Below, in pieces: positions 2,598-36,100 of a stretch of DNA of 44,891 bases. A program made the translations under genes and the position numbers. The notes under the pieces are model-generated. The model worked only from the letters and a program-made list of their open reading frames with translations, made no database searches and was not told where the DNA came from. Source of the stretch: Reclinomonas americana ATCC 50394. Lineage: Eukaryota. Position 1 is the stretch's first letter, and each line of letters begins with the position of its first letter. The DNA lies in contig PS015322.1 of the NCBI GenBank assembly GCA_048213135.1, forward strand, positions 8,172-53,062, written 5' to 3'.

Positions 2598-5500
2598 CTA
2601 GAAACGAAAGACCAGGTCAAACAGTGAACGCAAATCGATGACGTTGTTGTTGTTGCTGCTGCTGTTCAGCTGGAGTGCGTCCTCAATCCTGCGACTGCAC
2701 TGATCGCTGCCCACCTCCCGACACAGATGCTCCGCCGACACGTAACCAGTCGCCGGCCTGCGATTCGAGATCGCTTGAGCAAGAGCAGTCACGTCGTCTT
2801 TGACTTTCGCTGCCTCCTTGTCGCCGACGGCATTCATCAGAACATCAGATAGGGTCGCCGCAAGGTCAACGTTGCCTGGATGCAAAGCGTTCAGCAGTAT
2901 TTGACCTGCCGCAACGAGCCACACATTGAGGTAAGCATACTCCCAACGTAGCACTCACCTCTTTTTCACCACTATGATGCACGCGGGTTCGACAACCACA
3001 TGCACCGAATGATGCGCAGCGGCCAAGTACACACACAAACACAAAAAACATCAAACATAGATACATACATACATGCACACACACTCTCTCCCACAGAGGG
3101 AGAGAGAGTGAGAGGACTGCTGCAACATGACGAAGCGCCACATTTGGCTGCTGTGTTCTGCACTTTCTCTCTTTCTCTCTCTCTCTCTCTCAGCATCTCA
3201 CAAAAGAGCACTCTTTCCCTCTACACCACTCTTTGTCGAAGCGACCGACTCCTTTGCTCTTGCTCGAGTCCTCTCAACGGTCTGCATCTGTCCACTCCAA
3301 CATCAGCACGCAACTCGTCCGCAGAGGCATGTCACAAAACGTTGGTCCGTAGTACACCGACGCCACAGTCTTGTCGATGACGATGAAACGGCGAAGCTCT
3401 TCGTCGCTTGGGCGTCGTCTCTTCTTCACTGTTCCCCACGCATCGGCGCTCACGTCGGGAATGGCATGCGGCGACGACAGCACGGCAAGCCACGACGCCG
3501 ATGAGTTGTTCTCAATGTAGCGTCCAATCTGCTCATCACCACCATGTCTCAGCACGACATGCACACTTGCATAGCTGCGCCCAGTTGATAAGCCACTCAC
3601 CTCACACGTACGCTGCATCGCGCGCTGAACAGTTTCGGCATCAGCAAAAAGCAACTTGCACTGCTCGAGAATCACAATTTCCTTCTTGTCAACAGTCTCC
3701 ACCACCGTCATGATGTCGCATCCATAGGCATCATTGCTTGTCATGCGCACGACCGGCATCGTCTCGTCTAACTGGCGGACTTTCACCGGCTCAGTTGGTT
3801 TCGTCTGTTATTTCGACATGTCAGTCAACGCAGCAGCTGTTGAGAGCCGAAGGTAGAATCACCTTGCGTGCGAGCTCCTTCTTTGTCAACCAAGAGGGTG
3901 ACCAGCGCGGACCCACAATATCCACTGTCCCTCCGGACCAGCCTTCACGACGTAACGCACTTTTCCACAAGGGGTGGCGCCCAAGAAGACCTGAATAAGA
4001 CTGCAGCTTAGCAAACATGCCACAGAGTGCACACGAATCTCTCAGGAGCACCATACCTATTTTCGCACCCTCCAAACGATAGACAGAAGACAGCCAGGCC
4101 GCAGGTGCCGGGTCCGCCAAGTGTCGCTCAAGTTGCATGGCAATGTACGCTGTACGCCACTTTTCAAACGCCTCAGACGGCTGCAAATCGCCGCCTTCCA
4201 ACCCGACGCTCAAGCTGGCAACACGTGCGGCCAGTTGACCAACAGTCCCCAGTACTTGTGCCTTCATAATGTATGTCGGCGGCACATACACTCGTGCTCC
4301 ATCGTCACTCGCCTGTCCCGCCATGCACGAGTGATTAGCTGTATGGACAAACACTCGCACACACATACACACAGCAACGACACACCTTGCGGAGAATCGC
4401 ATATCCATCTGACTCGGCCTCCTCAATGAATGCAGAATTAACGATCTTGGCGTCAATCGCGGCCAACAGAATAGTCTTCGCCACAGACTTGTCAGAGTCC
4501 GACATACATTCCGCTTTTTTGTGAAGCTTCAAGTCATCAATTGTCAGCAACACCTCCTCTGCATCGCCAGCGCAGATAAGTAAACTCTGCGCACACAAGC
4601 TTTAGGAACGAATAACAATGTACACGCAACGAGGATTTCCGGCAGTCTCCATCTTCATGCACTCTACAGCGGAATGGTCGACGGGGCAGCACAGTAAGTA
4701 CAGAAATAGTCAGGCCACAGCGCGAGAGTCGACGCAACCTACGGCAGCTGTGACTACCTCGATCTGCGATCGCGTCAAGGAGGAACGACTGTCGAGCAGA
4801 GTCCGCAGTGCTCGACTCGTTCGCCAAGCCACGTGAATTGATGCCGGAAGGCCGGCTTCAGTCGCGCCCGAATCTGCGCACTTCAAAATTGGCATGCATA
4901 TACGGGAGAACACAACACACCACTGCGTCACTACTCGGCAAGCTGCAGTACAGTCCATTACCATTCTCTCTACCCAATACTCTAGCGCATGCGACAATTC
5001 ACGCAAGCAGCCATGATCTACACTCACTGCCCGTGTCCATATTCTATATTCGCGCTCTCAGAGACTGTCAGTCACACGTGCAACTCATCATCGCTGAAAA
5101 TGTGTCTACAGATCTACATATACTCCGCACTATTCGTCCAACAGCACGCAACTCGGCACAATGGTCTCGAATATTTGGCGCATGAGCTCGTCTGTTTCCA
5201 GCGGAAGCAGTGGAATGCCGGGGACACGGAGGACCTTAACACCAGAAATTTTCGACACGAGTTCAGCATCCACAGTGATTAATCCGGCAAGCATCGGCAC
5301 CACAAGGTTCGGTGGTTTGCATGAGTCGATGATGGCGCGCAAAGCGTACTTGAGGCGCTGCCGACGGAAACTCTGAGCGTAGGAAACAGTGTGGTGTTGC
5401 TAGTGAGTGTGTCTTCGCAAGCGAGAAAGCAAGGCGAGAGTTTCACATCAGGAGAGCCTCTTTCGCTAAAACACACAACTGCATCGCCGTCAGTGTACAC

Positions 5501-7483: not shown

Positions 7484-10400
7484 TCTTACTTATTGTCTTG
7501 TGTGNNNNNNNNNNNNNNNNNNNNNNNNNNNNNNNNNNNNNNNNNNNNNNNNNNNNNNNAGAGTGGGAGGGAGGTCGAGATCTCTCTCTCTTTCTTCTCT
7601 CTCTCTCTCTCTCTCTCTCTTTCTGTGTATTTGCGTGTGTGTGAGAGAGATGGGGACAGAAGAAGAGAGAAAGAGAAAAGGAGAGAGAAGGGACAGAAGA
7701 AGAGAGAAAAGGGAAGGAAACGGAGGGGAGATGACAGGAGATTGACAGTGGAGCAGAGAGGTACAGAGACCAGACCTCACTCTTTCTTCGCTCTCTCTCT
7801 CTCTCTGTGTGTGAGAGAAAGGATCAGAAGGGGAAAAGAAAGAGAGGAAAACAGGGAGGGGTAGGGAGAGCGAGAGGCGGATACGATGCAGAACACGCAA
7901 CAGAAAGGTGTGCGCATCTCTTAGCATTGGAATAGCGTTTTGCGTCTTCCTTCGCCATGGACGATAGAGACCTGTTCGCTCCCCTTCTCACTTCCTCCCT
8001 CCCTTCATCACAGCCGTCCCCGACCACAAGCGACGACTGCTCGTCGCCCGTGCCGTGCTGCGGGAGATCATGAACACGGAGCGGCAATGCCTCCGCACCC
8101 TATTTGCATACTTGTCAACCGTCGGCGCCGTGCACCAGGCCTCGGGACTAACGACCACCGACATTGCAGCTGTTTCGTCACTTATTGCACACCTCGCTCC
8201 TTCCCTTTCTCCACTTCTGTGTGCTCACTTTCTCCTGCATTCATGCGCTGTGTGCTCCTCCCCTCATCCCTCATCCCTCTCCTTCCCCCTCCACCAGGTG
8301 ATCGGCCCCGCCGTGCTGCCCCACGCGCCGGCCAGCGACAGCGCCTTCTTTTGCGAGATGTGCATCGACGGCTTTGCCAATATCTTCAACGACGGTCAGC
8401 TGCACCGTGCCCTCTTCTCCTTTGCCGGCAGCACCGGTGACGAGCTCACGGTGCAGGCGGGCCAGCTCGTGAATGGTGCGGTGTTTGTCTGCCTGCGAGT
8501 TTCAGGGAGGGTATTTCTCACTGCCCTTACTTTACACAGTGATCCAGGCGGAGGGCAACGGGTGGGCCTTTGGTCAGATCTACGACCCACAAATTCCCAA
8601 CTCGGTGCAAGTCGAATCCGTCGGCTACCTCCCGCAGTCGTATCTCGAACCGGTGTCTGGCGGTGACGCCACTGGTACTGCAGTTTTTTGCCTGCTCACA
8701 GTCCGCTCTCGTCGCTTTGCTCATCGTGCATGTATACCTGCAGCCATCCTCACCGCCGAGACTCTCCGACAGCACAACGAGCACGTCGGAAGTGCGCCGG
8801 AATCTGCTCAGGGGGGTGCGTCAGCGGCAAGAAAACATTCATTCTCTCTATCTTGCGTTTTTCCTCATCCTTGCCTGCAGGCTCCTTTTCGCTCGGCATG
8901 GCGCTCCCACCCCGAGCCGCCGCCGCTCCGACAGTACTCGACACACTCAGCACCATCCAGCTGCAACAGCAAGCGGCGGAGCGTGCCGGCGATCGCAACT
9001 CACTGACTCGCCTCAAGAGCGAGAAGGACATGGTGCTACGGTCGCACATGAGCGCGGCGATTGTGCGGCCAGGTTCGCCACCGCCACTGTCCACCACTTT
9101 GGGGGCTTTTGCCGATGCTCGTGATGGGCTGATGACGGATGGTGAGTGGATGGAGAAGGGAAGAGCGAGAGGGAGAGAGAGGAGGGGATGAGAGAGAGAG
9201 AGGGAGGACGGGGGGAGAAAGGGAACTCACGCTACTTGTGCAATCTCTTGGCCTTCTGCCGTCTGTAAATTCTTACTCTTTTCTCCTCGCACTGTACTCC
9301 ATTCGACTATCTGCGCATTCTATCTCTCTCCGTGCTGTGTTCGTCTTGCTGTGCTCCACTCCTTTTACTGTGCTCCATTCATCTCGCTATGTCTCGTTCA
9401 TCTCGCTGTGCTCCGTTACTCTTGCTATGCTCCGTTCCGCTTGCTGTGCTCTACCCCTCGCACTGTGCTCCATTCGACTCTCTGCGCCCTCTATCTCTCT
9501 CCGTGCTCTGTAACTCTTGCTGTGCTCTACTCCTTTTACTGTACTCCCGCTATGTTGCGTTCCTCTCGCTGTGCTCTACTCCTCGCACTGTGCTCCATTC
9601 GACTCTCTGTGTTCGTTCCTCTCGTTGTGCCCCGTTCCTGTCACTTTCCTCTGTTCATCTCTCTGTGCTCCGATCCTCTGTCTGTATTCTATGTCTCTCG
9701 CTGCGCCTCCGCCTCTCGCTGTGCTCTGTTCGCCTCGGTGTTCGCTTCCTTTTCCCATTTCTCTCATGCTACGTTTGTCTCTCCCCTCACGCCCTTCCCC
9801 CCCTTTCCTTCATACCCCTCAATTCTTCTTCCCCAATCCTCCCCCCTTTTCCCTCTTCTCGCAGGCCTCATCACCTCACCCACCTCCACCATTGTCGGCG
9901 GCATGAGCGGTCCATTCAGTCCACTCGCCGATCACCCGTCACAGTCGTACCAGCAGCAGTCGCTTCCGCCACCCTCACAGCTGTACGCGCAAGCAACTGC
10001 GCTGCCATCGTCGCTTCCCCACCCGCAGCCTGTGCCTGCCTCCGCCGCCTCCTCTGTCCACGGCGAGCTGCCACCGCTGGCTCCACAGCCGGCTGAGCAC
10101 ACAGCGCCAGTGTCGCACATCGATGCCGGCGCGATTGAGCCGTCGGCTGTGGGCCTCGCGCCGTGGACACCGCAGTCTGTTGCTCTCCACCCAATCGTGT
10201 CAGCGTCTCCCATTCCATCACCGCACATTCATCGTCCTGCGTTGGTCGGCTACCAAGGTGAGAGCGCGGGAGACGGCACTTTTCCTTCTTTCCACTCTCT
10301 TTCCCACTCCTGCGCTCACACGCTCGTATCGTCTCGCAGCTGGTCCGTCTGCGGCCGGACGACCCACGCTGCAGCCGCTGCGATTGGACTCGATGGACGG

Positions 10401-10979
10401 TGGTGCTGGTGTGAATGTTGCACCTTCTGGCACGGTGTCGTTCGGTTCGTTTGCGCCGATGCGTGAAGCGCATTCTAATCCGTTGCCTGACATCATCACT
10501 TGTTTGTTCAGCGTCCACAACCCTCACCAATCCCGGAGTGCAGGCATCTGGTTGCGTACTCTTGAATAGCACTTCAGTATTCTCCTCTCTCTCTCTCTCT
10601 TTCTCACGCACGCAACTTACTCTCCTTCTCCCCCTTCTCACTCTACTTCTTCTTTCTGTCTTCTTCTTCTTCTCTCACACGCTCCCCGTCCCTCTCACTC
10701 CTCTCTCCCTCTCCTTTTCCTCTCATTCTGCCTCTCCTCTCCTCTCCTCTGCTCTCCCTTCCTCGCTCTCTCTTCTCTCTCTCTCCTCCCCCTCTCCCCT
10801 CCTCTCCTCTCCTCTCCTCTCCTCTCCTCTCCTCTCCTCTCCTCGCCTCGCCTCGCCTCTCCTCTCCTCTCCTCCCCTCTCCTCTCTTCTCTTCTCCTCC
10901 TCCTCTCCTCTCCTCTCCTCTCCTCTCCTCTCCTCTCCTCTCCTCTCCTCTCCTCTCCTNNNNNNNNNNNNNNNNNNNN

Positions 10980-11035
<56 letters not shown>

Positions 11036-14000
11036 CTCTCTCCTCTCTCTCCTCTCTCTCTCTCTCTCTCCTCTCCTCTCCTCTCCTCTCTCCTCTCTCT
11101 CTCTCCTCCTCTCCTCTCCTCTCCTCTCCTCTCCTCTCCTCTCCTCTCCTCTCCTCTCCTCTCCTCTCCTCTCCTCTCCTCTCCTCTCCTCATTCCTCTC
11201 CTCTCCTCTCCTCTCCTCCCTCTCTTCTTACCGCTGCGTATGTGCACAGCATTCTCCCAACCGGCCAGTGCAAGTACGTCCATGAATAATACCTTGCCTT
11301 TCCATCTATCATCATCACTCATTCTGTTTCTTCTTGTTGTGCAGGCGATCAAGGTCACAATGCATCGGCAGCCGCCGATCACAATCCCTTCATGAGTCCC
11401 TACGCGTCCAGTCGCTGCGTACCATGTTCTGCTTGATTTTGCTTGCACCTCCCGCATTCACTCACTATTCCCAATGCCACAGTTGGCCTGGGGCAGTCGG
11501 CAGGTGCACCGCCAGTCGGTTGCGTTGACAGACACTTTGGCACGAGAGGTTGTTGCGTGTGCTCATGATCTCGCTTCTCGTTTTCCAGGCAACAATTATC
11601 CACCGCCGCCGAGCCAGACTTTCCCCGACTACACTGCTGCTGCTCAACAACCTGCCTCCGTGTCCTTCCAGCTCCCACCAGCAGATTTCGGTGGTGCGCC
11701 GCCGTCGCAGTACTATGGCGCTCCGATGGAACCGTTGCGTCTGCGGTCCACCCACTCACGGATTCTTTCCATGTTTGTTGAACGTCTGTCTCACCCCCCT
11801 CGGCTCAGTTTGCAGCGCACGCCGTCGGGGCTCAATTTCGTGCCGACAGCGCCGACGCCCTCGGATGCACTCACGGCGGCCACATCAACCCTCGGTGCCG
11901 TAATGTCGCAGCTGCCGAGTCCTCGTTGCGTTGCGCACCACCAGCTTGTACTTGTGCTCTCATCCCATCTCAACTATGGTTTCTCCAGGTCGGTGGACTC
12001 CGCGCGTCACTGCAGCCGAACCGGAAGAAGTCTCTGATGTTGAGATCGCGACTGAAGAGATTGACGACCCGACACCGGCAGCAACTCCGCAGTACGCTCC
12101 GTCGCCTCGTGTCGCCACACCGACGCGGGTGAGTGTGTGTGGTGCTGCTGCAGTCATGTGCCCGACACTTGCGGTTGTGGGCTCATGCGGTGTGCAGGTG
12201 GAGATGCCGGAATCGTCGCTGCCTCGTCCAATGTCCGGACAAAGCGCCGGATTCAGCTCTGTCCGGCACACAGAGTCCGCCCAGCAACGTTTCGTGGCTT
12301 TCACCGTCGCTCTCGCACCTGTGGCTGACTGATACTATTCCTTCTTGTTTCGTGTATCAGCTCTCAGCTATGCTCCTCCGCCCGCCGCCTCGGCCTTTGC
12401 TGCGCGCAGTGGAAGTGGTGAGAATCGCCTTCTGTGTGTGTGTGGGCTGTTGTCTATCGCGTCCGCCTATTCACTGTTGGCTGCGCAGGCGAGTTTTCCG
12501 TGAGCTCGTTGGATGCCGCTCCGAAATGTGCGTGCATCTCTTCTTCCTTGTTTTCTTGCACTTCTCGTCCATTGCGCTTATGTTTCCCTTCAGCTGTTTC
12601 ATTCGTCAATGGCAATGATGTTGGTCGGAGTGGTACGGAAAAACATACCTGCTCCCGCTTCTGTGTGTCACTCTCTGACTTGTGTTCCCATTGCAGGCTC
12701 GCCCTACACTAGCATCTTTGCGGTAAGTGTCCGCCTTTTTCAATCCCACTTTCTCTCTTCCTCACGTATTCTGTTCGACACCACAGCAGCAGCCGTCGTC
12801 ACCACGATCGTACACCGACGAGTACTTCCGCAAGGAGCTGGAGTCGCGCTACCAGGCGATCAAATCCGGGTCGTCCGCGCCCTCGTCCCTGTCGTCCATT
12901 CCTCCGCCTGCGACGCAGGTGCTGGAGAGCAGCAGTCCACGCCGCGCTGCCCCGTTGCCAGTGTCGCCTCGCAGTGTTGGAGTGGACTTGCGTTCGCCGG
13001 TGATTTCCGCACCGCGGCCTTCGTCGCTGTCTCCGAGGGTACGTCTTTTGTGACAAATAGAGTGAGAGAAAGAGAGAGAGAGGAAAGTGAGAATGAGAAG
13101 GGGAGAGAGAGGGGGAAAGAGAGAGAGAGAAAGAGAAAGAGAGAATCATAGGGATAGAGAAATAGAGAGGGAAAGAGAGAGGGAAAGAGAGAGGGGGTAA
13201 GAGAAAGAGAGAAAAAAGGAGAGGAGAGACGGAAAGATGTACAGAGAGAAAGAGAAAGAGAGAGAGGGGGGAAAGAGAAAGAGAGAAAAAGAGAGGAGAG
13301 GAGCGCGGGAGAGAGTCAGAGGGAAGGAGAGAAAGAGAGAAAGAGCATTTTTTGCTCATCTCGGTTGCATTCATTTTCTCAGCCGCTCTACGAGCAGCCA
13401 ATGTCGGCACTGGCACCGCCCTCGGCCAAGATCTCGCCGACCGCGCTGCCCGTTTCCTCCCCACGAATGTCTGCCGCGACGGCGGAATTGCCAAGACCGT
13501 CTGTTGCGTGCTGTCTACACCCATACAATTCTGTCCTTCATGTGTGCTCATTCCCACCCCCTGTTGCAGGTCTCCCCGACCAAGGTCTCCTTCCCCGCTC
13601 GTGTCTCGTCTCGGTACTGGCGATGCTCACTAACATGTGTGAGAACAGCCGTCTGTGTTTCTGCAGCCTTCACCATTTGACAAGGACGCACGGACGCGCG
13701 CCGTGTATGCCGAGACCTTGGCACTCCAGCGACAGGTTTGTGGCAGCCGCATATCATCGTCGGTTCCGTTTGACTTGCTGCTGATCATCCCGTGTCTGTA
13801 GCTGGAGGACCGTATCCGCTTGATGGTGGCTTCATCGTCGCCTCCGGTGGCGCCGGTGCCCACCAAGTCACCCGTGTCACCCATTGCAAGTGGGGGTGCA
13901 ATTGGCACAGTTTCGTTCGTTTTGTGTTTCGTGATCATGTGAATGTGAGAGCTGAGTGAGACTCTTACCGCGAGCAGCTCACTGGCACTCATGTGGGTGA

Positions 14001-14615
14001 CGTGTCTCTTTCGTTGGTTGGTTGTGTGTGCGTGTGTGCGCGCGGCAGTCAATCATGTGCTGACTGTGCCTTCTGCAGAGTCCCCTCCGCAAGCGCGATG
14101 CGTACAACGAGGCGCTTCGCGTTCAGGAGCAGGTCCGTTTTCTGTTCGTTTTCAAGAGCGTGCTCTATCATTTTCTCACTCTGTCATCGGGAACAGGTGG
14201 AGGAGCGAATCCGATCCGCTGAGCGCCTCGCCGCTCGCGGACCGCAAAGCCCATTGGTCGCTGATTCGCGCAGTCCGGAGATGCGGGGAGTTGCGTGGAA
14301 AGGCGGCAGTGATTATCGCGCAATGTTGATGTGCTCACTTGGTGCCTCTTCAGATTCACCGCCTGGACATGGATGCGGAGCGCCTGCGACTCGAGTTGCA
14401 GCTGAAGCGGTTGGACGAGGAGAATCAAGTTCGCTCCTCGACCGATTACACCTCCAAGTGTTGCGGAGGGGAATGGGGGAAGAGGGACAGGGGGAAAGTG
14501 AGGGGAAGGGAATTTGAGAGAGTAAGACGTATTGAGCTGTATTGGCAGAAATATAAGAGTTTGTTGAGAGGTAGAGAGACAGACAAACAGATATGTGCAC
14601 AGGGAGAGAGAGAGT

Positions 14616-14675
<60 letters not shown>

Positions 14676-16301
14676 GAGGAGAGAGAGNNNNNNNNNNNNN
14701 NNNNNNNNNNNNNNNNNNNNNNNNNNNNNNNNNNNNNNNNNNNNNNNNNNNNNNNNNNNNNNNNNNNNNNNNNNNNNNNAGAGAGAGAGAGAGGTGGAAA
14801 GGGAGAGATGCAGTCGGATGGATAGACTGGCAAGCTGTCTGGGGATCGGTGGATCAAGAGTAGAGATGGTTGGAAAGGACATTTGAAAGCATGGGTGTGT
14901 TTGAAACCGAAAGAGGGGGAGGCTGAGTGATACGCAGGAACGACAACTGAGGGTGTAAGAGAGGAAAAGTGAATGCGAGAACGGGACAGGCGTGAAAAGT
15001 CAGTGTGCGTGCGTGTGAGACACGAGAGAAATGACTGGAGGGGCAGGCAGGTAGTTTAAGTTGACGCAGTGGCTTCCTGACGGATCTCAGGCATGCTGAG
15101 TGAGTGTGAGGGACACGAATGACAGAGTAACTGGCGGACTGACAGACAGAAAGATGCTGAGAATGCGATGGGCAGCCAAGGAAAGGAAGAGTCACTGGCG
15201 GTCTGGGAGTCCGAAAATTGCCAATAAGCGTGCTCTGAAAATAACGATTGCGCAATATAATTACACAAGCGCGCTCTCTTCTCATACTGCCACTTCACAG
15301 ACCTTGCTAAATTGGATCAGTTGGAGCTGGAGGGCCGATCCTCGAGTCCCGAGGTCAGTCTGTCATTTCTAGAAAACTCGCCTTTTTCCAGTCCCCCTCA
15401 ATTACCTCCCCAATCAGGCCGGCTACCTAGAGGACGCCACGCGTGACATTGGCTACCGCCTGCAGCTGCAAGAGCTGCGCTCCACACGCGACTCCATTGG
15501 GAGGGACCGTGGAATCGAGAAACAACGTGCGCTCTCGCAGCGTGCGCAGGAGGAGGCGGAGGCGCTACGCCAGAAGCAGCTGGAGATTCTGCGCGCCAAG
15601 GAGCTGCAGTATTTGCGGGAGCGGCGCTTGCTGGCGCAGCAGTTTGGCGTGATGGCGCTTGAGCAGCGTCCGGGAGTGGCGCTCGGGAGTGTCAGTGCCA
15701 AGGATCCGACGTTTGTGGAGAGTGAGGTGAGCGGAGTGGGAAGGAGAGAGTGAGATGGGGAAAGGGAGAGGCTTGGCTGTTGTTTTACTGTTGCATGTTG
15801 CGCTCACTCCATCTCCTCTCCCTCTGCAGGCACACCGCCTCGCTGTGGAATTTCAGCATCTGCGTGATCGCTCACTGGATACGGTGGAGAGCACCGAGTC
15901 ATTCCTGCAGAATCACCAGGTGCGCGATGTTTATCAGTATTCTCGATGTTCACTCGCTCAACCAACCATGCAGCTGGATCAAGTGCGGCACGAAGAGCGG
16001 CAGCGCGACTTTGAGACGCAGCTCCGACTCGCCGAATTGGAGCGGCTGCAGAGTCGGCAGCGATTGGAGGGCAAGATGCGACAAGCGGTGTGTTGAGGGG
16101 AAGAGAGCAATTCAATCCCTTCCCAGTTTCCTCACCACTCCTCCCGTTCAGTACGCCATTGTGGAAAAGGAGGAGAGCGAGCGCCTGCGCCTTCACCACC
16201 AGCTGCAACAGGAGGAGCTGCAAGAGCGCGAGGAGGCCAACCGGCGTCACCGGTTGATTGATCACGATATTTTCATGCAGGGAGCGCGCGAGTTTTATTG
16301 A
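7393..16301 (+). CDS. Degenerate RhoGAP-like + SH3 domain protein with long Pro/Ser-rich linker and C-terminal coiled coil (about 25-30 exons)
   Basis: RhoGAP-like helices DSTIVMAVLTQWL and CLRTLFAYLSTVG...LTTTDIAA|VIGPAVL. SH3 HRALFSFAGSTGDELTVQAGQLVN|VIQAEGNGWAFG...GYLPQSYLE (8400-8650). An unbroken chain of frame-consistent splices runs from 8014 to the TGA at 16299-16301. The start is uncertain (7393, or an upstream ATG at 7198) and the 7444-8013 linkage is unresolved. Confidence 0.8.
9280..9730. repeat. Degenerate intronic minisatellite (ctcgcactgtgctccattcgactctctg / ctcgctgtgctc units)
   Basis: Units recur at about 9285, 9456 and 9580. Confidence 0.75.
10730..11215. repeat. (CCTCT)n/(CT)n intronic microsatellite containing an assembly gap
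   Basis: Directly visible. Confidence 0.95.
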
Positions 16302-16422
16302 GGCAACGCACGATTTTTTGCACAATGTGACATGTATGTACCAAGGTGACGAGTATTATTATTGCGTGGGAGTGCGCTGGAAAAAGTTGGAGATGGAGGC
16401 AGAAGCGGCGGCTGAGTTGCCG

Positions 16423-18993
16423 CTACTGCTGGAGTTGCGTCGTCTGTGCAAGAAAGTGAGAAAGGGTAGAGTGATGAGACAGCAGCCGTCGGCGCAACTT
16501 GGCAGGTTGTTCTGGGTGCAGGGGACGCGAAGCTGGTCTCTTGCGTGTCGTGCTTGCCGCCTCGCCAGTGCACTTGTCCATGTGCGTGTTGAGCAGGAGA
16601 AGGGCGGCGTTCTTGTCAACGCCTTCGCACGTGCCGTGGCACATTGGGCACACCAATTGTACACCAGTGCACAGCACGCTCGGTTGCTTTGTGCGCGGTG
16701 GCGACTGTCACCATCGAATGAGTGGGTAATCTCTGACTGAGCACAGCAGAGACCGAGGAGTGTGAGCTGTTGTTGCACGCAACTCGCGGGCGAGGGGCGG
16801 GCCGGCTAAGCATCATGCAGTGGCGATCGAGATGTTCGTTAAGCGCCAGGGCGGCAGCTGTCTTATTGATGCTCTCGACGACGAAGCCACAGGTGGGGCA
16901 TTGGAGGGTGGCGCCTCGAGCCATGAGGGCAGACTGAGAGGGCGAGGGGAGAGGGGAAGAGTGAGACTGCAAGCAAAACAATAATCAGACCCTCGTACCC
17001 AGACACTGATGCTCAGGAAGTGAACATGCTACCTGAGTCTCAATGCAAGTGTCTCACTCTTCGAGGTATTTCAAATTCTCTCNNNNNNNNNNNNNNNNNN
17101 NNNNNNNNNNNNNNNNNNNNNNNNNNNNNNNNNNNNNNNNNNNNNNNNNNNNNNNNNNNNNNNNNNNNNNNNNNNNNNNNNNNNNNNNNNNNNNNNNNNN
17201 NNNNNNNNNNNNNNNNNNNNNNNNNNNNNNNNNNNNNNNNNNNNNNNNNNNNNNNNNNNNNNNNNNNNNNNNNNNNNNNNNNNNNNNNNNNNNNNNNNNN
17301 NNNNNNNNNNNNNNNNNNNNNNNNNNNNNNNNNNNNNNNNNNNNNNNNNNNNNNNNNNNNNNNNNNNNNNNNNNNNNNNNNNNNNNNNNNNNNNNNNNNN
17401 NNNNNNNNNNNNNNNNNNNNNNNNNNNNNNNNNNNNNNNGATGAGGTGAGTGTGAATGATGGAAGAGACTGCGTGCGATCGTGTGATCTCTCACCTGCAC
17501 GCGCTCCAGCCCGCTGATGCGCACGCCCACCAGGCGGATTTTGCCGTGCATGTGCTTGTGCACCAGGCTCTCCACGATGGGGAAGATCTGAATAGGGAAA
17601 GAGTGGGAGAAGGGACAGGGGGGAGTGAGAAGGGGGAAGCGAGAAGGGTGGGGTGGAAAGAAAGCTTGCATGTAAAGTAGTCGGACTCTTCTCATCTCTT
17701 ATTCGTGATTCTCTAAGCCAGAGGGACAGGAAAGAACGGGAAAGAGAACAGACAGTGGTTGGTGCACAAGGAGAACTCAGTGCTCCCTCTTTCAATCTCT
17801 TTCTCTCTCCACTCAGTAGTCGGACTCTTCTCATCTCTGATTCGTGATTCTCTAAGCCAGAGGGACATGAAAGAACGGAAAAGAGAACAAACAGTGCGTT
17901 GGTGCACAAGGAGAACACAGTGCTCCCTCTTTCAATCTCTTTCTCTCTCCACTCTCCTTTCTCAGGGGAAACTGGCGAACGAGAGAAAGTGCATGCTGTG
18001 CTCGTCAAGTACCATCTGACATGCTATCTTGTGTACACATGCTGCTTCTCGCCCACTCATTGTCATGCCGAGAGAGAATGCAATTGAGTGCATCAAGTGT
18101 GAAACCAAGAAAAAATGCCGCACCTCTCTCGCCAGCCGAATGGGAGCCGGAACGGAGACGGCTCGAGTGGTAATCTGCACACAGCCAGAATCAGTAGGCT
18201 GCCTTCATCATTCTACCCTTGAAACGCACACCTGAAAGTTGGTTGTCTTCAACTTGAGCGTGATTGTTCTTCCGCGCCGCTGACCCCGTGCGAGATCCTG
18301 TTCCAGTTCCTCGCACATCTGTGTCCACAGAAACGGGCATTCAGTCAGCGCGTAAAAATACTCGCCGATTGTGGCACGTACCGTCTGCACACGATCGATA
18401 ATATCGTCGACATTGTCGGTGCCCATAAACGTGGACTCGGTGGAGTAGCTCTTGCGCTCGGCCGGCGGTCTGCACACGGCCCTTCATCAGTCATGAAGAC
18501 AACTCGAAAAAACACTCCAACTCTCGCAACGCACCCTTCGCGAATGTTGCGCGACAACCCGATGCTCTTGCGCAACAAGAAATGACTGGTCATGTCGCGA
18601 AACACCAGCAGCAGGAGCGCACGTTGTGCAATCAGGTCGCCCAGCGTGTGACAATCGAGAAATGTCAGCAGTCGCTCGGTCACCTGCATTGAGTTGAGCA
18701 GGCAGGCAGGCGTGGTGCGCCTGAGGAGCGGATGCAGTATACCTTGCCAATGCCCGGAATCTTGCGAGTGGGCAGCGGTCGCATGTAGGCCTCAATGGCG
18801 TCGGCATCGAACGGCAGCATGAACTGGCCGTTGGGCTTGTTGACGTTGCTGGCGACCTTGGCAAGCATGCGCTGCGCGCAGGCAAGAGAATGGCTATGAG
18901 GCGTGGAGGGCAAAGACGAAGGGAGACAAGAAGCAGTGAAAGATTATACAGAGAAACAAGGAGAGGGAGAGGGAGAGAAACAAGGAAAGAAAA

Positions 18994-19031
<38 letters not shown>

Positions 19032-22000
19032 CAAGACAGAGGGATCTCTCTCTCTCTATCGCGTCGCAACATTGGGGCCGATACCGATGCTGGCGGTGAG
19101 TCGGGTTTCCCTGCAGAACGCGGTCAATGGAGAAGCGCGTGTCATCAACAGCAGTATGCACGAGGTAACGCACGCTTCAATCTCCTGTCGGATGCGGGAG
19201 GCGAGGTCGGCGCGGGAGAGGTTGCGGTGGGCACTCCTGGAGGGACGACGGTGAGAAGGGAGACGAGGGAGAGAAGGAGCAGGAGGGAAAGAAGAAGTGA
19301 ACACAGAGAGACTCTCTGACTGGAGGAGGGNNNNNNNNNNNNNNNNNNNNNNNNNNNNNNNNNNNNNNNNNNNNNNNNNNNNNNNNNNNNNNNNNNNNNN
19401 NNNNNNNNNNNNNNNNNNNNNNNNNNNNNNNNNNNNNNNNNNNNNNNNNNNNNNNNNNNNNNNNNNNNNNNNNNNNNNNNNNNNNNNNNNNNNNNNNNNN
19501 NNNNNNNNNNNNNNNNNNNNNNNNNNNNNNNNNNNNNNNNNNNNNNNNNNNNNNNNNNNNNNNNNNNNNNNNNNNNNNNNNNNNNNNNNNNNNNNNNNNN
19601 NNNNNNNNNNNNNNNNNNNNNNNNNNNNNNNNNNNNNNNNNNNNNNNNNNNNNNNNNNNNNNNNNNNNNNNNNNNNNNNNNNNNNNNNNNNNNNNNNNNN
19701 NNNNNNNNNNNNNNNNNNNNNNNNNNNNNNNNNNNNNNNNNNNNNNNNNNNNNNNNNNNNNNNNNNNNNNNNNNNNNNNNNNNNNNNNNNNNNNNNNNNN
19801 NNNNNNNNNNNNNNNNNNNNNNNNNNNNNNNNNNNNNNNNNNNNNNNNNNNNNNNNNNNNNNNNNNNNNNNNNNNNNNNNNNNNNNNNNNNNNNNNNNNN
19901 NNNNNNNNNNNNNNNNNNNNNNNNNNNNNNNNNNNNNNNNNNNNNNNNNNNNNNNNNNNNNNNNNNNNNNNNNNNNNNNNNNNNNNNNNNNNNNNNNNNN
20001 NNNNNNNNNNNNNNNNNNNNNNNNNNNNNNNNNNNNNNNNNNNNNNNNNNNNNNNNNNNNNNNNNNNNNNNNNNNNNNNNNNNNNNNNNNNNNNNNNNNN
20101 NNNNNNNNNNNNNNNNNNNNNNNGGCAGTGAAAAGGGAGGACGTGGAATAGAAGAGCAGGAGGGAAAGAAGAGGAGCAGAATCGGGAGGAGTACGAGATA
20201 AGACAGAGAGACTCTCTGGCTGGAGGAGGGCAGGAGACAGCAGTAGACAGCGAAGACAACGGGGGAAGACGAGGAAGAGAAGGAGAAGGAGCAGGAGGGA
20301 AAGAAGAGGAGCGGAATCGGGAGGAGTGCAAAAGAGAACACACAGAGCATACATGACTGGAGGAAGAAGAGGATTTAAAAGGACAGGACAGGAGGCAGCA
20401 GTAGGTAGTGAAGACGAAGGGGAGAAGAGGCTTGAGGAGAAGCTGAAGGAAAAGAAAAATATCTCGTAAAAATGAATGCCACGCGACATGTGCTTGTCAG
20501 GCAACCACTCCTTCTGGTTCCACTCACAAGTAGTCCGTGACATCGAGGTACGCCTCGTCCAGCGAGGCCATTTCAAAATCTGTCACGCAATAGGTCAGTC
20601 GTCGAACAGAAAACAACACCGCGACCATCACATCAGCGCACTGGGATCGTATCGTGCAAGAATCGGCCGAATCTCGCGACTGGCCGCCGTGTACCTGCTC
20701 GCCACAGTCAGACTCACGCAATGCTGGACCGGCTGCTGCTGTTGACGGCACGCAACTTGGAGAAACTCGGCTTGATGAGCTTGAGCTCGGGGCACAATTT
20801 GAGACCGATGAAGCCAGGCATCGCGGAGCGCACGCCCTTCAGTCGCGCCTCGTAGCTGCTCGTGCACAACATGCCCATACCGCCGACGGCCACAGGCAAG
20901 CCTCGCAGTTCGGGTCGATCGCGGAGTTCCTGCGGGTCGGGGCGGGTCGGGGAAGGATGAGAGTGAGGGGGAGGGACGGAGAAGGTGGGCGTTGCCTGCA
21001 TACCACGGCCACTGCGATGAAATGCACAAGAGTCAGTCACCAGCATGAGTGGCGGGGAAGGAGAGAGAGAGAGAGAGAGAGACCAGAGGAGAGAGAGAGA
21101 GAGAAGAGGAGCTCCACAACTCGCGCGCTCTGATAGCTTCTTCTTCCTTATTGCTGCTGTTCGTGTTGGTGGTGGTGTCATTGTTCCTTCTCCTTCATGC
21201 TTCTTCCTCTGCTTCTTGTTTCTCGAGGTGGGGCTACTGCTGCTGTTGTCCCAGTTGTTGTTGGTAGTGATAATATGACAACGGTCTTCTTCCCTCTTCA
21301 TGCTCTTGCTCTCGTTCTTCTTGTTCTTCTTCGCCTTCTTCTCCTTCTACTTCTCTCGTCTTCCCCTGCTCCTCCTCCTCCTCCTCCTTCTTCAATCGGG
21401 CTCTCCTCGTGCGAGGCGGATCTACAAGATGAATCAATCTTTGGGACTCTTCCCGCCACATACTCAGTGCGGATCCATCACATACTGGCGAGGGACTTGC
21501 TCTCCTATTCCTCACTGCTTCTCCTCTGGTTCTTTTTCTTTCCATTTCTAATTCTCTTCCTCCTCCTCCTCCCCCTCCTCCTTCTTCTTCTTCAACCGGG
21601 ATCTCCTCGTGCGAGGCGGATCAAGATGAATCAATCTATGGGAAGATACTCATTGCAAATCCACCACATACNNNNNNNNNNNNNNNNNNNNNNNNNNNNN
21701 NNNNNNNNNNNNNNNNNNNNNNNNNNNNNNNNNNNNNNNNNNNNNNNNNNNNNNNNNNNNNNNNNNNNNNNNNNNNNNNNNNNNNNNNNNNNNNNNNNNN
21801 NNNNNNNNNNNNNNNNNNNNNNNNNNNNNNNNNNNNNNNNNNNNNNNNNNNNNNNNNNNNNNNNNNNNNNNNNNNNNNNNNNNNNNNNNNNNNNNNNNNN
21901 NNNNNNNNNNNNNNNNNNNNNNNNNNNNNNNNNNNNNNNNNNNNNNNNNNNNNNNNNNNNNNNNNNNNNNNNNNNNNNNNNNNNNNNNNNNNNNNNNNNN

Positions 22001-22457
22001 NNNNNNNNNNNNNNNNNNNNNNNNNNNNNNNNNNNNNNNNNNNNNGAGATGGAGGAAGAGGAGAGGGAGAGAAGGAGGGAGAGAAGGGGGAAAGAGAGGA
22101 ACAGGAAGAGGGAAAGGGAGAAGGAGAGGAAGAAGGAGAGGGTGAGGGAGAAGAGAAGGAGAGGGAGAAGAGAAGAAGTAGAAGATGGAGAGAGGATGAG
22201 ACAGGTCATGAGTGAGTGAGAGTGCGACCAACAGGAGAGAGACTGAGAGAATGAGAGAGTGAGAGAGAGAGAGAGAGAGAAGGATGAGAGGCGAATGAGA
22301 GTGAGAGAGTGAGCATCTGGGGCCTCTTAATGTGCGAGAATGAGGGGAGAAAAGCTCGAGTTGAAGTGCGACTCTCAGTGTGCGTGTGAGAGTGAGAGTG
22401 AGAGTGACCTGTGGGAGTTGGAGGTCTTCCTGTCTCCTGTTCATGAGAGCCTTGCAT
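16423..22457 (-). CDS. POLK: DNA polymerase kappa (Y-family, DinB) with two UBZ zinc fingers and a C-terminal PIP-like box; 5' exons partly hidden in gaps
   Basis: ELRDRPELRGLPVAVGGMGMLCTSSYEARLKGVRSAMPGFIGLKLCPEL, FEMASLDEAYLDVT, LTASIGIGPN|RMLAKVASNVNKPNGQ, IPGIGK|VT, ERKSYSTESTF, RTITLKLKTTNF, IRLVGVRISGL. UBZ CPTC..NEHLDRHC and CPMC..NTHMDKC; TLSHFL near the C-terminus. Well supported for 16423-21011; the first exon (ATG 22457) is a guess. Confidence 0.93.
17676..17954. repeat. Two tandem 139-bp copies inside a POLK intron
   Basis: agtagtcggactcttctcatctc…ggtgcacaaggagaac…ctctccactc starts at 17676 and again at 17815. Confidence 0.9.
21385..21660. repeat. Diverged tandem duplication in a POLK intron
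   Basis: cttcttcaa.cggg.tctcctcgtgcgaggcggatc…aagatgaatcaatct at about 21387 and 21587. Confidence 0.8.
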
Positions 22458-22540
22458 TTATCTCTTCAACGCACTCTCTGTGAGAGAGAGAGAACAAGAA
22501 AGAAAGAAAATGGGAGGAATGCGTGTGGTGCGCGCTCAAT

Positions 22541-22565
22541 CACGTGTTGCGGGAAAATGACGTCA
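22541..22565. promoter_or_regulatory. Compact motif cluster: E-box CACGTG, E2F-type TTTCCCGC (minus strand), CRE TGACGTCA
   Basis: cacgtg (22541-46), gcgggaaa (22549-56) and tgacgtca (22558-65) lie within 25 bp, upstream of the POLK transcription direction. Confidence 0.45.
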
Positions 22566-22659
22566 CCGCACACAGGACAACTCATGACTTCCGTCTCGCA
22601 TTATTGGAGAGGGCTGGAGATTCACAGCAACAACTCTGCCCTTTCGTGTTGCAACGCTC

Positions 22660-23015
22660 CCCTGAGCCGAGAAAGAGGAGCTGACGATGCCGACAAACTC
22701 TCGAGCGACCTCCTCATGGCTGCATTTCCTTGCATTATCAGCCCTTCCTTGACTGCCTGACCCTCTCTCCAGCATTCCCCCACTGGCTGTACAATCACAG
22801 TAAAACACTTCACCCTTCGCTCCACTGAGCCGAGAAAGAGGACTAACTTGCTCCTGGCTGCCTCTCCTGCAGAATAACAGGAAACAATTCCGCCCATCCG
22901 TGCGGCATCAATCCCCTGCGCCAAGAAAGAGGAGATGACGAAGCATCGACGAGCTCTTCCTGGCCAACCACTCCACCCTTCCCTGCCTGCATCTCCCTGC
23001 AGAAAATCAGCGTAA
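22660..23015. repeat. Three diverged tandem copies (ctgagccgagaaagagga…ctgc…cctgcagaa) between pICln and POLK
   Basis: Core motif at about 22662, 22825 and 22915. Confidence 0.65.
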
Positions 23016-23064
23016 TCTACTCCTCCTCGCCTGGCTACACTTCCCCTTCACCTTTCCCCCAATT

Positions 23065-23643
23065 TCAATCCTCCTCTGCATCCTCAAACCGCCCCTCCTC
23101 ATCGTCATCATCACCATCCTCCGCATCCTCCAACGACAACCCCGGTGCCATTTGCAACATCTGATCATAGTGCGCCAGCCGCTCCTCCGCCGACGCGCCC
23201 TCCCAGAAAAAGTCGCCCTCCCCCGGCAACTCCTCGTCGGGATTCAAACAGGCACCGTGACAAAACGCCGCGTACAACTCGTCCAACGACACCGCCACGG
23301 GCGCCAGTCGCGCCTCCACGTAGCCTCCACTAAACGACAAGTCTGCGCCCTCTTCCTCCTCCTCTTCTCCTGCCTGTTCTGCTTCTTCTTCTCCATCGCC
23401 CGTGGTAATGTGGCAATACAGGGTGGCCTCGGGGAACTCGTCGGACGGAGGCGATACAGCGTGCAAGCCAACGTCGCGGAAGCTGAAGGCGAAGGATACA
23501 GTGGAGTCGCTCGTGCTCAACCAGTACACGAATCTGAGGGAAAGGGAGGGGGTGAGAGAGAGGGAGAGAGAGGGAGTGAGGGAGAGAGGGAGGGGGTGAG
23601 AGACAACTTTCAAGTGGACATGTCACAACACAAACACACACAC

Positions 23644-23733
<90 letters not shown>

Positions 23734-33100: not shown

Positions 33101-36100
33101 GATTTCAGGCTTCACTGTGAGCAGCTCGAATACCAACTTTGTGGCTGCCACGCAGTACACTGTCAAGGCTATCTTCACTGTCAATGGCACCGGCACCACT
33201 GCCTCGGCGGCCGGCTCCCTCCAGGCCACCACCGACAACAACGGCTCTGTGCCGCTGGCGCCCACTGGTGTGGCCTACTCGCGCCTGTTCTCGACTGGCG
33301 TGCGCCTCAACTTCTCGACCCCGATCAGCGTCGGTGGCTCCAACACCGCCACCTCGAGCGCCACGCAGAGCAACGTGACCACCCCGACTCCGAACTTGAG
33401 CGCCTACCGTGTGGTGTACTCGACCAACAGCTCCTCGTCGGTGACTGCGGCCACTGCCGGCACTGCGGTCGCCATTGACTCCAGCTCCATCCCGTCCACC
33501 AACGGCAGCGGTGCTGCGGCGTCGTGGAACAACAACCTGTCGACCTACTACATTGACGTGACTGGCCTGCCGGCTGGCACCTCGGTCAACCTGCAGATCT
33601 GCGCCAGCAACCAGTTCTCGATTGCCTTCCCGACCTCGCCCTTCAACCCGGCTGGCACCACCGCCAACCCGGTGACGTGCGCGTTCAGCGCGGCAGTCAA
33701 CTTCACCACTCCGGCTGCCTCTGGCGTCGTGCCGAATCCGCCGACCAACCTGGTCGTGACGCAGTATGGCCTCACCAACATCTCCCTGCAGTGGACGATT
33801 CCGCAGAACTTTGGCACCAACGCCGTTACGGGGTTCACCGTTTTCCGCGGCCAAGATATCACTACTTTGATGTCTGTGGCCACGGTGACCCTGCCGGCTG
33901 GCTGGGCGCTGACCGCCGCTTACACTGCCGACACGACGCTGACGGCCAACACGTCGTACACGTACCAGGTGCTCGCCACTACCGGCTCGACCAACTCGGC
34001 CACGCCTGCTGGCCCGATCACTCAGACCACTCACAACACCAGTTGCGTGAAAGGGGGGAAAGGAGGGGAGGGAAAGAGAAAGAGGACGAAGAATGGGTTG
34101 GAGAGGACAGCTTTGCTGCTTGTATTTGTGTGTGTGTGAGAGAGAGAGAGAAAGAGAAAGAGAAGGACGGCGCAGCTCTTTGCGTGTGCAGTACGAGGAG
34201 AAGGACTGCCGCACTCTTTCTTTGTGTGAATCTGTGTGTGCATTATGCGGGAGAAGTTGCCCTCTTTTGTCTGGGAAGATGAGAAAGTTGAAAGTGCTTC
34301 TACAAGAGGAAGAAAGGCTGCCCACTTATGATCCACGTGCTCATCCACCGCTCCCCTCTCCCTACCACAGATGACGCGCCCATTGCCCCCTTGGCCCCGA
34401 CGCTGGCTGCTGGTATTGCGAACTCGCAGGGCACCAACTCGAGCGCCGGATGCGCTTTCGTGGCTGGTACCCTCGGTGTGGGCTTCTCTGGCAACTGCTA
34501 CCAGGACACCATCACCAGCATCTCGTGGACGTCGCCGATTGGCATTGGTGGCACCTCGATCAACGGCTACATTGTGACGCAGAACACCAGCAACTGCAGC
34601 CGCACCTACACGTGGACGACGCTGACCACCAACTTCAATTTCCCGACCATTCCGGGCAAGTCGTACACCTACGCCGTGCAGGCCACCAACACCCGCTCGG
34701 ACTCTGGCGTGACCTCGACGCAGAACGGTGCTCAGTCGGGCACTCTGTCGCAGATTGCCAACTCGATTGTGCGCCCGTACCCGCTGCCGGCTCTGACCAC
34801 TGGCGGCTCGGCTGGCACGACTGGCTCCGGCTACGCCACCTTCACGCTGTCGACCCCGTCGACAGTGCAGGGCACGCAGTACTCGCTGTCCACCTCGGAC
34901 GGCTTCGCGAACTACGTCGGCGTGCAGGTGCTGGTGCAGAACCTGACCAACGTCACCTCGACCACTTTCGTGCCGGACACCTTTGTGACTCAGTTCGCTG
35001 GCTCGCTCGGCTCGACCACCTCGTCGCTGCTGGTGAATGGCCTGACCTCCAACACCAAGTACCGCGTTGGCGTGTCGTCGTTCAACGGCTACCAGACTGC
35101 CTGGTCTGCGTCGGCCATCACCATCACCACGGCCACGTCGCCGCAGCGCCCGGGCGGCATCACGTCGCTGTCGTCGAACCTTCTGCTCAAGCGCTCGACC
35201 TCGATCTGGCTCAGCTGGGGACAGCCGCAGGAGACTGGCGGCCAGGGCTTCGTGAACCAGTGGCAGGTGTCGTGGCGCGCGGCTACGGCCAGCACGCTGA
35301 CCCAGAACACCACCTCGGTGCAGCAGGCTGTGATCCGCGGCCTCACTGACGCCACCAACTACTTCATCGATGTGCGCGGCATCAACGGCATTGGCACGTC
35401 GACCACTCAGGCCACCTTCGGTGACGGCATCATCGGTAACGGCCTCAACAACAACGTGCTGACGGGCCAGGTGCCGAATGAGCAGACCAACTTTGCAGCG
35501 ATCAGCAACACTGGCACGGCGCTCGCGTTCACGTGGACGACTGCCACTGGCGCGTCGACTACCATCTCTGCCCAGTCGCTGACTGGTGTGTCGGGCACGA
35601 TTGCTTCAGACCCAACAGTGGCGGTGGGTGCTACCGACACCACGGCATCGGTGACGGTGGTGAACGGCAACTTCTACCGCTTCTTCCTCAACGCGACCAA
35701 CTCGATTGGCACGGGCAACAACTCGCTGTCGATCTACATCCAGGCGGCGCCGGTGACCACGACTGGCATTGTGCCGGCTGCTGGTACCCCGTCGCTGGAC
35801 TTCTACGCCGCCAACGAGTACCGCGTGTCGTGGACTGCGGTGGGCTCGGGCACGACTGCGGCCGCCACCTACTACCTGGTGTACTGGCAGTGGACGACCC
35901 GCTTCCTGGCGTCGACTGGCAACCCGGCTGTCGCTGACGGCCTGGGAATGAATCTTGCGACCCTCGGCAGCGGCACCAGTCCGGCCATTGCCGGCACGTG
36001 CGTGCAGCTGTTCCAGACCATCAAGCCGTCGTCGCGCTACCGCATGGTGCTGATCGGTGGCAACACTATCGGCCTCGGCCAGGGCTCGCAGGGCACCGCC

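Follow-up and report, generated by a model that had tools for sequence, protein, structure and literature searches.

Whether all 5' splice sites of one genome are read in the same register is a question raised by a 44,891-base window of Reclinomonas americana ATCC 50394 (GenBank assembly GCA_048213135.1, contig PS015322.1), in which introns beginning with the word GTTGCG(T) lie among introns with more ordinary donors. This window is the whole stretch of DNA analysed, and every count below is drawn from it; it has 56.3% G+C and nine runs of N, and is a draft eukaryotic assembly dense with short introns. A first-pass annotation had counted 23 GTTGCG donors, pointed out that few of them follow an exonic G, and proposed that the intron's own +1 G fills the slot normally taken by the last exon base (-1), which would thereby be freed from constraint.

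The last exon base separates two donor classes

Seven gene models, designated A to G, were rebuilt by hand and by script, giving a catalogue of 81 introns inferred from reading frames, splice signals and homology. The catalogue comprises 53 ordinary introns (class I), 24 GTTGCG introns (class II) of 55 to 841 nucleotides (nt), and four similar ones (three GTTTCGT and one GC candidate), and the GTTGCG class is real, with a count of 24 rather than 23. Shifted-type donors make up 24/81 of the introns, or 28/81 with GTTTCGT and GCTGCGT included (30-35%). They are listed below by coordinates, strand, gene, -1 base and the evidence that bears on each, "stop" and "frameshift" denoting the consequence of retaining the intron; in the text a donor is named by its first base.

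GTTGCG donors
458..463, minus, gene A, G; in-frame stop
1450..1455, minus, gene A, A; stop
3309..3314, minus, gene B, A; stop
4625..4630, minus, gene B, C; stop
4733..4738, minus, gene B, G; stop
5147..5152, minus, gene B, A; stop
10551..10556, plus, gene C, G; acceptor 11249 or 11344, present in 5/5 forced-path alternatives
11519..11524, plus, gene C, G; stop
11734..11739, plus, gene C, C; in frame and stop-free if retained, placed by its signals and an open spliced frame
11925..11930, plus, gene C, C; first of two overlapping GTTGCG, frameshift
13503..13508, plus, gene C, T; good signals, frame conflict in the following 44-nt exon
14290..14295, plus, gene C, A; frameshift
14460..14465, plus, gene C, T; intron across an N gap, stop
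16493..16498, minus, gene D, A; frameshift, spliced product ending ..SISNFFQRTPTQ
16778..16783, minus, gene D, A; frameshift
19065..19070, minus, gene D, T; 75/76 spanning homologue alignments ungapped
20751..20756, minus, gene D, A; 75/75 spanning alignments ungapped, related protein with a 25-residue insert
28422..28427, plus, gene F, T; signals only, retention of its 78 nt keeping the frame without a stop
28623..28628, plus, gene F, T; splicing gives ..YTIAAYAVNAYGEG.., fn3 by Pfam
29163..29168, plus, gene F, T; stop
31955..31960, plus, gene F, A; stop
34042..34047, plus, gene F, A; stop
41907..41912, minus, gene G, C; intron across an N gap, 22/22 spanning alignments ungapped
43894..43899, minus, gene G, C; 8/11 spanning alignments ungapped, stop

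Similar donors
8172..8177, plus, T; GTTTCG(T) with the shifted pattern (T at +3, G at +6, T at +7), signals only
12289..12294, plus, C; GTTTCG(T), restores the frame, stop
13910..13915, plus, A; GTTTCG(T), from forced-path search, stop
11414..11419, plus, C (ambiguous); candidate GC variant GCTGCGT on the best frame-consistent path, alternatives 11396 and 11419

The -1 base of the 24 GTTGCG donors is A in nine, T in six, C in five and G in four, and the four G cases are exactly those named at first pass (463, 4738, 10551 and 11519). In contrast, 47 of the 53 ordinary donors follow G, including all of the examples given earlier (8476, 8675, 8816 and 27204); the six exceptions are 5610 (A), 5476 (T), 12528 (T), 20641 (A), 20527 (T) and 19173 (C). 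The association between -1 base and donor class that the first-pass annotation had suggested is therefore present in the window catalogue, with G/non-G counts over all 81 introns catalogued of 47/6 for ordinary and 4/20 for GTTGCG donors (Fisher test, p = 1.1e-9). The contrast held when ambiguous or signal-only introns were left out (43/6 versus 4/18, p = 2e-8), among introns whose retention gives a stop or frameshift (38/4 versus 4/17, p = 2.5e-8) and among the 13 junctions fixed by homology or the FN3 domain motif (8/1 versus 0/4, p = 0.007), and it runs in the same direction in all six genes holding both classes.

When the background was taken per codon position from the curated coding sequence, G preceded ordinary donors far beyond expectation (46/52 versus 0.327, p = 1e-16), and A was mildly enriched before GTTGCG (9/24 versus 0.19, p = 0.03). 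The contrast stems mainly from the strong G preference of the ordinary donors.

Intron signals and placement of the GTTGCG word

Among the 51 unambiguous ordinary donors the cores include GTGAG (14), GTGCG (13) and GTGTG (7). Position +3 is G in 35 and A in 10, position +4 is C in 19, A in 18 and T in 14 and never G, position +5 is G in 47, and position +6 is T in 32. The counterpart of this last slot in the GTTGCG donors is +7, with T in 19/24, and no position past +7 is conserved. The place of the G also sorts the other donors that start with GTT: those with G at +5 (GTTTGT at 5610, 13736, 27729 and 38597; GTTCG at 653 and 10445) follow G in 5/6 cases and act as ordinary donors, whereas the GTTTCGT donors with G at +6 (8172, 12289 and 13910) are preceded by T, C and A, respectively. 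The candidate GC-AG intron at 11414-11482 (plus strand) starts with GCTGCGT; this would be the shifted word with GC in place of GT.

The remaining signals are common to both classes. All 24 GTTGCG introns and three of the four similar ones have GT-AG ends, the fourth being the GC-AG candidate. With class II and the similar introns taken together, the branch motif CT[CGA]A[CT] occurs in the last 60 nt of 23/28 (39/53 in class I) at a median distance of 23 nt from the 3' end (19 nt in class I), the pyrimidine fraction is 0.70 (0.68), and the acceptor has C at -3 in 26/28 (52/53). Length distributions are alike and the two classes are mixed within genes. Judged from the sequence, ordinary U2-type GT-AG introns do begin at the GTTGCG(T) sites; a U12-type identity was rejected on the donor word GTTGCG(T) and on branch motifs that are the same as in ordinary introns.

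The placement of the word points in the same direction. The two strands together hold 47 copies of GTTGCG, a number reached by none of 100 shuffles (expectation 25.5 +/- 5.3), and the copies comprise 24 coding-strand intron starts, six intronic sense, one exonic sense, 14 antisense and two intergenic copies. Sense exons are depleted of it, with one copy versus 12 on the exon antisense strand (p = 0.003). GTGCGT is not avoided in sense exons (12 versus 6 antisense), and 11 of these 12 copies have no preceding G, so the effective words look like G+GTGCGT and GTTGCGT.

An exon-side preference apparently moved by one base

Comparison of exon ends between the classes showed that position -1 of class II is indistinguishable from position -2 of class I (p = 0.72) and different from position -1 of class I (p = 0.0002); likewise, position -2 of class II agrees with -3 of class I (p = 0.69) and departs from -2 (p = 0.018). 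Synonymous third positions tell the same. Among GTTGCG introns of phase 0, position -1 carries T in five, A in two, C in one and G in none, an A/T share of 7/8 versus a background of 0.278 (p = 8e-4); among ordinary introns of phase 1, position -2 carries A in eight, T in eight, G in three and C in one (A/T 16/20, p = 2e-6). Rather than being freed from constraint, as the first-pass annotation had it, the last exon base before GTTGCG seems to take on the A/T preference of slot -2. The exon-side preference appears to have moved by one base and not merely to have been relaxed, small as the numbers are. Both flanks thus look displaced by one base in the window and a -1 G is not needed, as a shifted register calls for.

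A proposed shifted donor register and its weight

The reading favoured here, which we place slightly on the probable side, is that the reader of the 5' splice site uses the ordinary word one base deeper in the intron. A 5' splice site component, most likely the 5' end of the small nuclear RNA (snRNA) U1, would read the word G/GTGCGT shifted by one, so that the +1 G of the intron would occupy the slot of the exonic -1 G, the U at +2 would face the base normally paired with the +1 G, and UGCGU at +3..+7 would take slots +2..+6. Cleavage would stay before GU, one base upstream of the position belonging to the recognition register, and the last exon base would no longer have to be G and would adopt the weak A/T preference of slot -2.

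Several observations weigh against a shifted register. On the exon side, G before GTTGCG is not significantly depleted (4/24 versus 0.318 expected, p = 0.13), and all four cases are phase-1 introns, in which the -1 base opens a codon and the share of G (4/11) is at background. The log-likelihood of class II exon ends is -103.4 under the class I matrix shifted by one and -99.8 under a uniform model (-134.1 unshifted); the shifted matrix being no better than uniform, the exon-side signal is weak overall. On the intron side, the sense-strand words GTTGAG (0/7), GTTAAG (0/1) and GTTACG (0/3) are never used as donors, and several of them are exonic. The shift therefore does not extend to every ordinary core: GTGAG (14) matches GTGCG (13) in frequency, and GTTGAG is still unused. 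In a leave-one-out model built on intron bases +3..+9 only, 8 of the 80 GT introns have a rival same-phase GT scoring equal or better, none of the eight being a GTTGCG donor.

The pairing with U1 adds to these points. The textbook U1 5' end (ACUUACCU) was used as the 11 nt given in Table 2 of Tan et al. 2016 (PMC4856993). Paired with it in the canonical register, ordinary donors reach a mean of -6.95 kcal/mol; for the GTTGCG donors the means are -0.51 in the canonical register, -0.53 in the shifted register and -0.79 with a bulge at +3. The pairing energies that the first-pass annotation had named as a check are therefore negligible for this class in both of its registers, and because they are negligible in every register the textbook U1 cannot explain the GTTGCG class. 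Its proposal that the +1 G fills the -1 slot accordingly fares in two ways: the -1 contrast and the synonymous A/T displacement speak for it, and textbook U1 pairing does not.

A changed U1 would alter this balance. Of the 33 single substitutions tried in the U1 11-mer, G for U at position 5 (G5) fits both classes best, with modelled means of -8.28 for class I and, for class II, -5.45 shifted, -4.39 with a bulge and -0.51 kcal/mol canonical. On this pairing model, a shifted reading leads one to expect G at position 5 of the U1, or else another reader. If the reader is U1, its position 5 is thus predicted to be G rather than U, and only the ..CG core would be used in the shifted form because position 5 would be G. 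Such a G5 would also account for C at slot +4 being dispensable in the canonical register and obligatory in the shifted one, where slot +1 carries a mismatch. The U1 candidate of Mastigamoeba balamuthi, as described in the preprint of Roy and Bowser (bioRxiv 10.1101/2022.06.08.495308), has the same U5-to-G change (ACGUAC), and the donors of this organism prefer GUGCGC. The same source, however, gives a standard U1 for Thecamonas and Mamiellales despite their +4 C preference, which also weighs against the shift; a G5 U1 is therefore not to be assumed.

A broader proposal, advanced tentatively and with rather less confidence than the shift itself, is that the genome uses a routine two-register donor code. 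A G5 U1 would read G GUGCGU normally or as /GUUGCGU, with GU fixing the cleavage; degenerate cores would pass when a -1 G helps, and the shifted register would demand a perfect core. U1 binding and cleavage positions would then be uncoupled in about a third of the introns.

Alternative explanations

It is possible, but in our view unlikely, that a separate reader, either a dedicated variant snRNA or a protein, recognises GUUGCGU without touching the exon. The GTTGCG class is far more stereotyped than the ordinary one, with C at +5 and G at +6 invariant beside the T at +7 (19/24), and a separate reader would suit this as well as the disuse of shifted GTGAG, GTAAG and GTACG forms, the negligible pairing of textbook U1 and an exon fit of the shifted matrix no better than uniform. 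However, GUUGCGU differs from the ordinary G/GTGCGT at one position, the classes are intermixed in the same genes with common 3' signals, and an exon-blind reader would not yield a synonymous -1 A/T bias that mirrors ordinary slot -2. A U1 variant with an inserted base, complementary to GUUGCGU throughout, would for its part still face -1 with C and would be expected to favour a -1 G.

More doubtful still is a bulged-U register, with U1 or U6 as the partner, in which G+1 and U+2 pair as usual, one U of +2/+3 is extruded from the helix and GCGU takes slots +3..+6; the additional T would be an insertion that the helix tolerates. Bulge registers at +2/+3 have been validated at human sites (Tan et al. 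2016, PMC4856993), and with textbook U1 the bulge is nominally best in 17/24 GTTGCG donors, though with the mean of -0.79 kcal/mol given above. The catalytic stage would require a bulge in any case, cleavage being at G+1. A bulge keeps the -1 base facing a G-pairing U1 base and hence predicts a -1 G, which was found in 4/24 (background 0.318) versus 47/53 of ordinary donors, and in none of the 13 GTTGCG introns of phases 0 and 2 (P = 0.013). The G5 variant divides the donors along the same line: for the four that follow G the bulge is best (-7.7 versus -6.1), and for the 20 that do not the shift (-5.32) beats the bulge (-3.73). The synonymous A/T bias at -1 (7/8) is not foreseen by a bulge, and a one-base displacement of the exon preference fits a register shift better than a bulged U.

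That introner-like elements brought their own 5' end to non-G sites, the -1 contrast being a relic of their insertion, is highly improbable: the clustering in gene F (5/7 introns with GTTGCG donors) is what recent gain could produce, but blastn among the 81 introns (E <= 1e-3) gave three hits, all from one ordinary pair with simple repeats and none within class II, the GTTGCG introns vary from 55 to 841 nt without conservation beyond +7, those at 20756, 19070 and 41912 sit in conserved cores of old genes with a relative that seems to share the 20756 intron, and the avoidance of GTTGCG in sense exons points to present-day function. For want of mutual similarity among class II introns, an introner-like origin was rejected.

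Reliability of the intron catalogue

The last alternative, that many GTTGCG sites are not intron starts and that the contrast arises from the picking of donors, touches the catalogue itself, which consists of inferred introns. A self-trained generic gene finder gave poor models; with splice-signal terms it proposed most of the introns, missing short in-frame exons and setting some same-phase donors wrongly. Each gene was accordingly read by eye, and the spliced sequence was translated to confirm that it was open. Spliced gene A is stop-free, genes B, D, E, F and G have a terminal stop only, and gene C is open as two pieces (8016-13502 and 13667-16301), two ambiguous stretches of it having been explored by forced-path search.

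We consider such an artefact very improbable. The introns at 11734, 28422 and 28623 can be read through in frame (3/24), and the frames of gene C are ambiguous near 13570-13613 and 10440-11480; yet the frame stays open only if 21 of the 24 GTTGCG introns are spliced out (14 by a stop and 7 by a frameshift upon retention, compared with 68 of the 80 introns of known phase overall), and homology or a domain motif fixes four of them. Moreover, the leave-one-out model ranked 72 of the 80 curated GT donors as the best same-phase GT within 45 nt, and the enrichment of the hexamer (47 versus 25.5), with a single sense copy within an exon body, is not what a picking artefact would give.

Homology support was drawn from alignments of the spliced proteins to homologues, with 92 high-scoring segment pairs (HSPs) for gene D, taken from the 150 listed of 4,534 matches, and 22 for gene G. 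A junction was counted as supported when most of the alignments crossing it, for gene D among the matches listed, had no gap within 5 residues of it. Four GTTGCG junctions are supported: 20756 (75/75), 19070 (75/76), 41912 (22/22) and 43899 (8/11). So are the ordinary junctions 20641 (72/75), 18742 (73/74), 18381 (64/69), 18231 (60/66) and 18123 (51/61) of gene D, and 43275 (17/17), 42887 (18/18), 42205 (22/22) and 41647 (22/22) of gene G. Five further junctions, 20527 (26/65), 19173 (43/72), 18534 (7/71), 42669 (0/21) and 42417 (12/22), were left out because the homologue alignments are themselves gapped there. In gene F, the product of the junction at 28623, ..YTIAAYAVNAYGEG.., has what we take to be an FN3 strand pattern.

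Curation also discarded several candidates. The gene B intron 3600-3529 (72 nt) was rejected as in frame, coding-like and devoid of a pyrimidine tract, and the predicted gene A intron 1939-1817 as spurious; in gene C, donor 13890 was dropped for 13910 after the forced-path search, and 12294 for 12289. Within gene C at 13503-13666 (plus strand), the well-formed short introns 13503-13569 and 13614-13666 flank the frame-breaking 44-nt exon, which could reflect an indel of the draft assembly or alternative splicing, since 13503 joined to 13666 is in frame.

Genes and other features of the window

The seven genes were found by Pfam scans of 124 open frames and by manual reading of both strands.

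Gene A, 1952 to about 215, minus; ordinary donors 883 (G), 653 (G, ambiguous versus 620) and 316 (G)
Gene B, 6700-2598, minus; spliced coding sequence open until the stop codon; ordinary donors 6493 (G), 6002 (G), 5610 (A), 5476 (T), 4385 (G), 4056 (G) and 3862 (G)
Gene C, about 8014-16301, plus; low-complexity and coiled-coil protein with 19 ordinary donors
Gene C, ordinary donors of the first part, plus; 8476 (G), 8675 (G), 8816 (G), 9142 (G), 10258 (G), 10445 (G, ambiguous) and 12129 (G)
Gene C, ordinary donors of the middle part, plus; 12418 (G), 12528 (T), 12633 (G), 12723 (G), 13039 (G), 13614 (G) and 13736 (G)
Gene C, ordinary donors of the last part, plus; 14133 (G), 15354 (G), 15727 (G), 15920 (G) and 16088 (G)
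Gene D, 20934-16359, minus; Y-family DNA polymerase (Pfam IMS, IMS_HHH and IMS_C), used in the homologue junction test; ordinary donors 20641 (A), 20527 (T), 19173 (C), 18742 (G), 18534 (G), 18381 (G), 18231 (G), 18123 (G) and 17494 (G)
Gene E, 24901-23065, minus; ICln/Voldacs; ordinary donor 24677 (G), its intron crossing an N gap
Gene F, 27140-36541, plus; very large FN3-repeat protein; ordinary donors 27204 (G) and 27729 (G, GTTTGT with G at +5)
Gene G, 44004-37033, minus; glutaminase by Pfam and homologue alignments; ordinary donors, all after G, 43275, 42887, 42669, 42417, 42205, 41647, 41092, 40164, 39920, 39792, 39154 and 38597

A 159-residue protein of another source (P0034, on a 3.4-kb contig) is 63% identical to the gene D model and carries an insert of 25 residues precisely at the 20756 junction, between ..FHK and RYSAAS.. 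(window 20695-20756, minus strand). The insert seems to be an unspliced intron translated by a gene caller, and its first residues (K, L, C) would suit an intron starting GTTG. The C terminus of the gene D polymerase holds two CxxC...H...C zinc-finger-like motifs and a ..SISNFFQ.. motif (window 16359-16960, minus strand); the latter appears only when the GTTGCG intron at 16498, of 55 nt, has been spliced out. The product of gene F, about 2,370 residues long, has a hydrophobic leader at the N terminus, many FN3-like repeats and a hydrophobic C-terminal stretch.

The closest glutaminase relative of gene G is an EukProt protein of Andalucia godoyi, with 40% identity across one exon. The genome's own annotated proteins were not among the 21 matches to the gene G query, so that they gave no independent source of introns, and a 60-residue exon query gave zero matches. 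In gene G at 40408-41092 (minus strand), the acceptor for donor 41092 is either 40576 or 40408, and 40575-40409 is open in frame and has no clear GT donor.

An Rfam scan of the window gave no match at gathering scores; at E <= 1 it gave 18 weak matches, mostly on simple repeats, 17 of them to microRNA families and one to a 3' untranslated region element, with no snRNA among them. A unit of about 110 nt is duplicated at 6894-7148 (plus strand), between the divergent genes B and C, in blocks of 48 nt and 40 nt that are 90-93% identical, and a related copy, judged by eye, lies upstream of gene E (about 24945-25050). The palindrome ACGTCGACGT has 11 copies at <=1 mismatch versus 1.5 expected in the window; it is exact at 2273, 6862 and 25197 and has one mismatch at 7202, all four sites being intergenic or promoter positions, and it may be a promoter motif.

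Comparison with known systems

A shifted (+1) U1 register at atypical human 5' splice sites was reportedly described by Roca and Krainer in 2009. In humans this register is an exception at individual sites. As in the human case, the +1 G would replace the exonic -1 G here and cleavage would stay at GU, and in Table 2 of Tan et al. 2016 (PMC4856993) the exon part of the "Shifted +1" test oligonucleotide ends in a base other than G. Unlike in the human case, shifted-type donors here amount to 24 to 28 of the 81 introns (30-35%) with one fixed core, GTT(G/T)CG(T), and textbook U1 gives no predicted helix stability.

The human bulge (+2/+3) and asymmetric-loop registers, as presented by Tan et al. 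(PMC4856993), likewise have an extra U near +2/+3 and a GCGU-type pairing displaced by one. They keep the exon-side pairing, whereas a -1 G is not enriched here (4/24).

Among protists, Entamoeba has GUUUGU.. donors with a co-evolved U1 AACAAAC (Roy and Bowser, bioRxiv 10.1101/2022.06.08.495308). As in Entamoeba and Mastigamoeba, position +4 of the ordinary donors here is preferably a pyrimidine (C in 19 and T in 14 of 51, with no G). For Entamoeba and Mastigamoeba one transformed consensus is described, in contrast to the two registers side by side in this window, and the preprint's sections on U1 co-evolution do not mention a shifted donor class (bioRxiv 10.1101/2022.06.08.495308). Among the papers listed by literature searches on the donor word, protist U1 co-evolution and Thecamonas splice sites, none describes a GTTGCG class.

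The GTTGCG introns resemble U12-type introns in having a second stereotyped 5' word beside the major class, and differ from them in sharing the CTCAY/CTGAY branch, pyrimidine tract and CAG acceptor with the ordinary introns. The minor-class 5' and branch words are absent from them.

If the shifted reading is true, a reading known from exceptional human sites would be a standard second code genome-wide, offering a natural system with thousands of sites in which to see what sets the position of cleavage apart from U1 pairing and how large the contribution of exon-side pairing is. Gene finders that expect G at +5 and at -1 would misplace about 30% of the donors, as the generic model did here, and the reading makes a sharp prediction on the U1 5' end of this organism. 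What would be new relative to the known shifted register is the frequency of its use, its restriction to one core and the displaced exon preference at synonymous sites.

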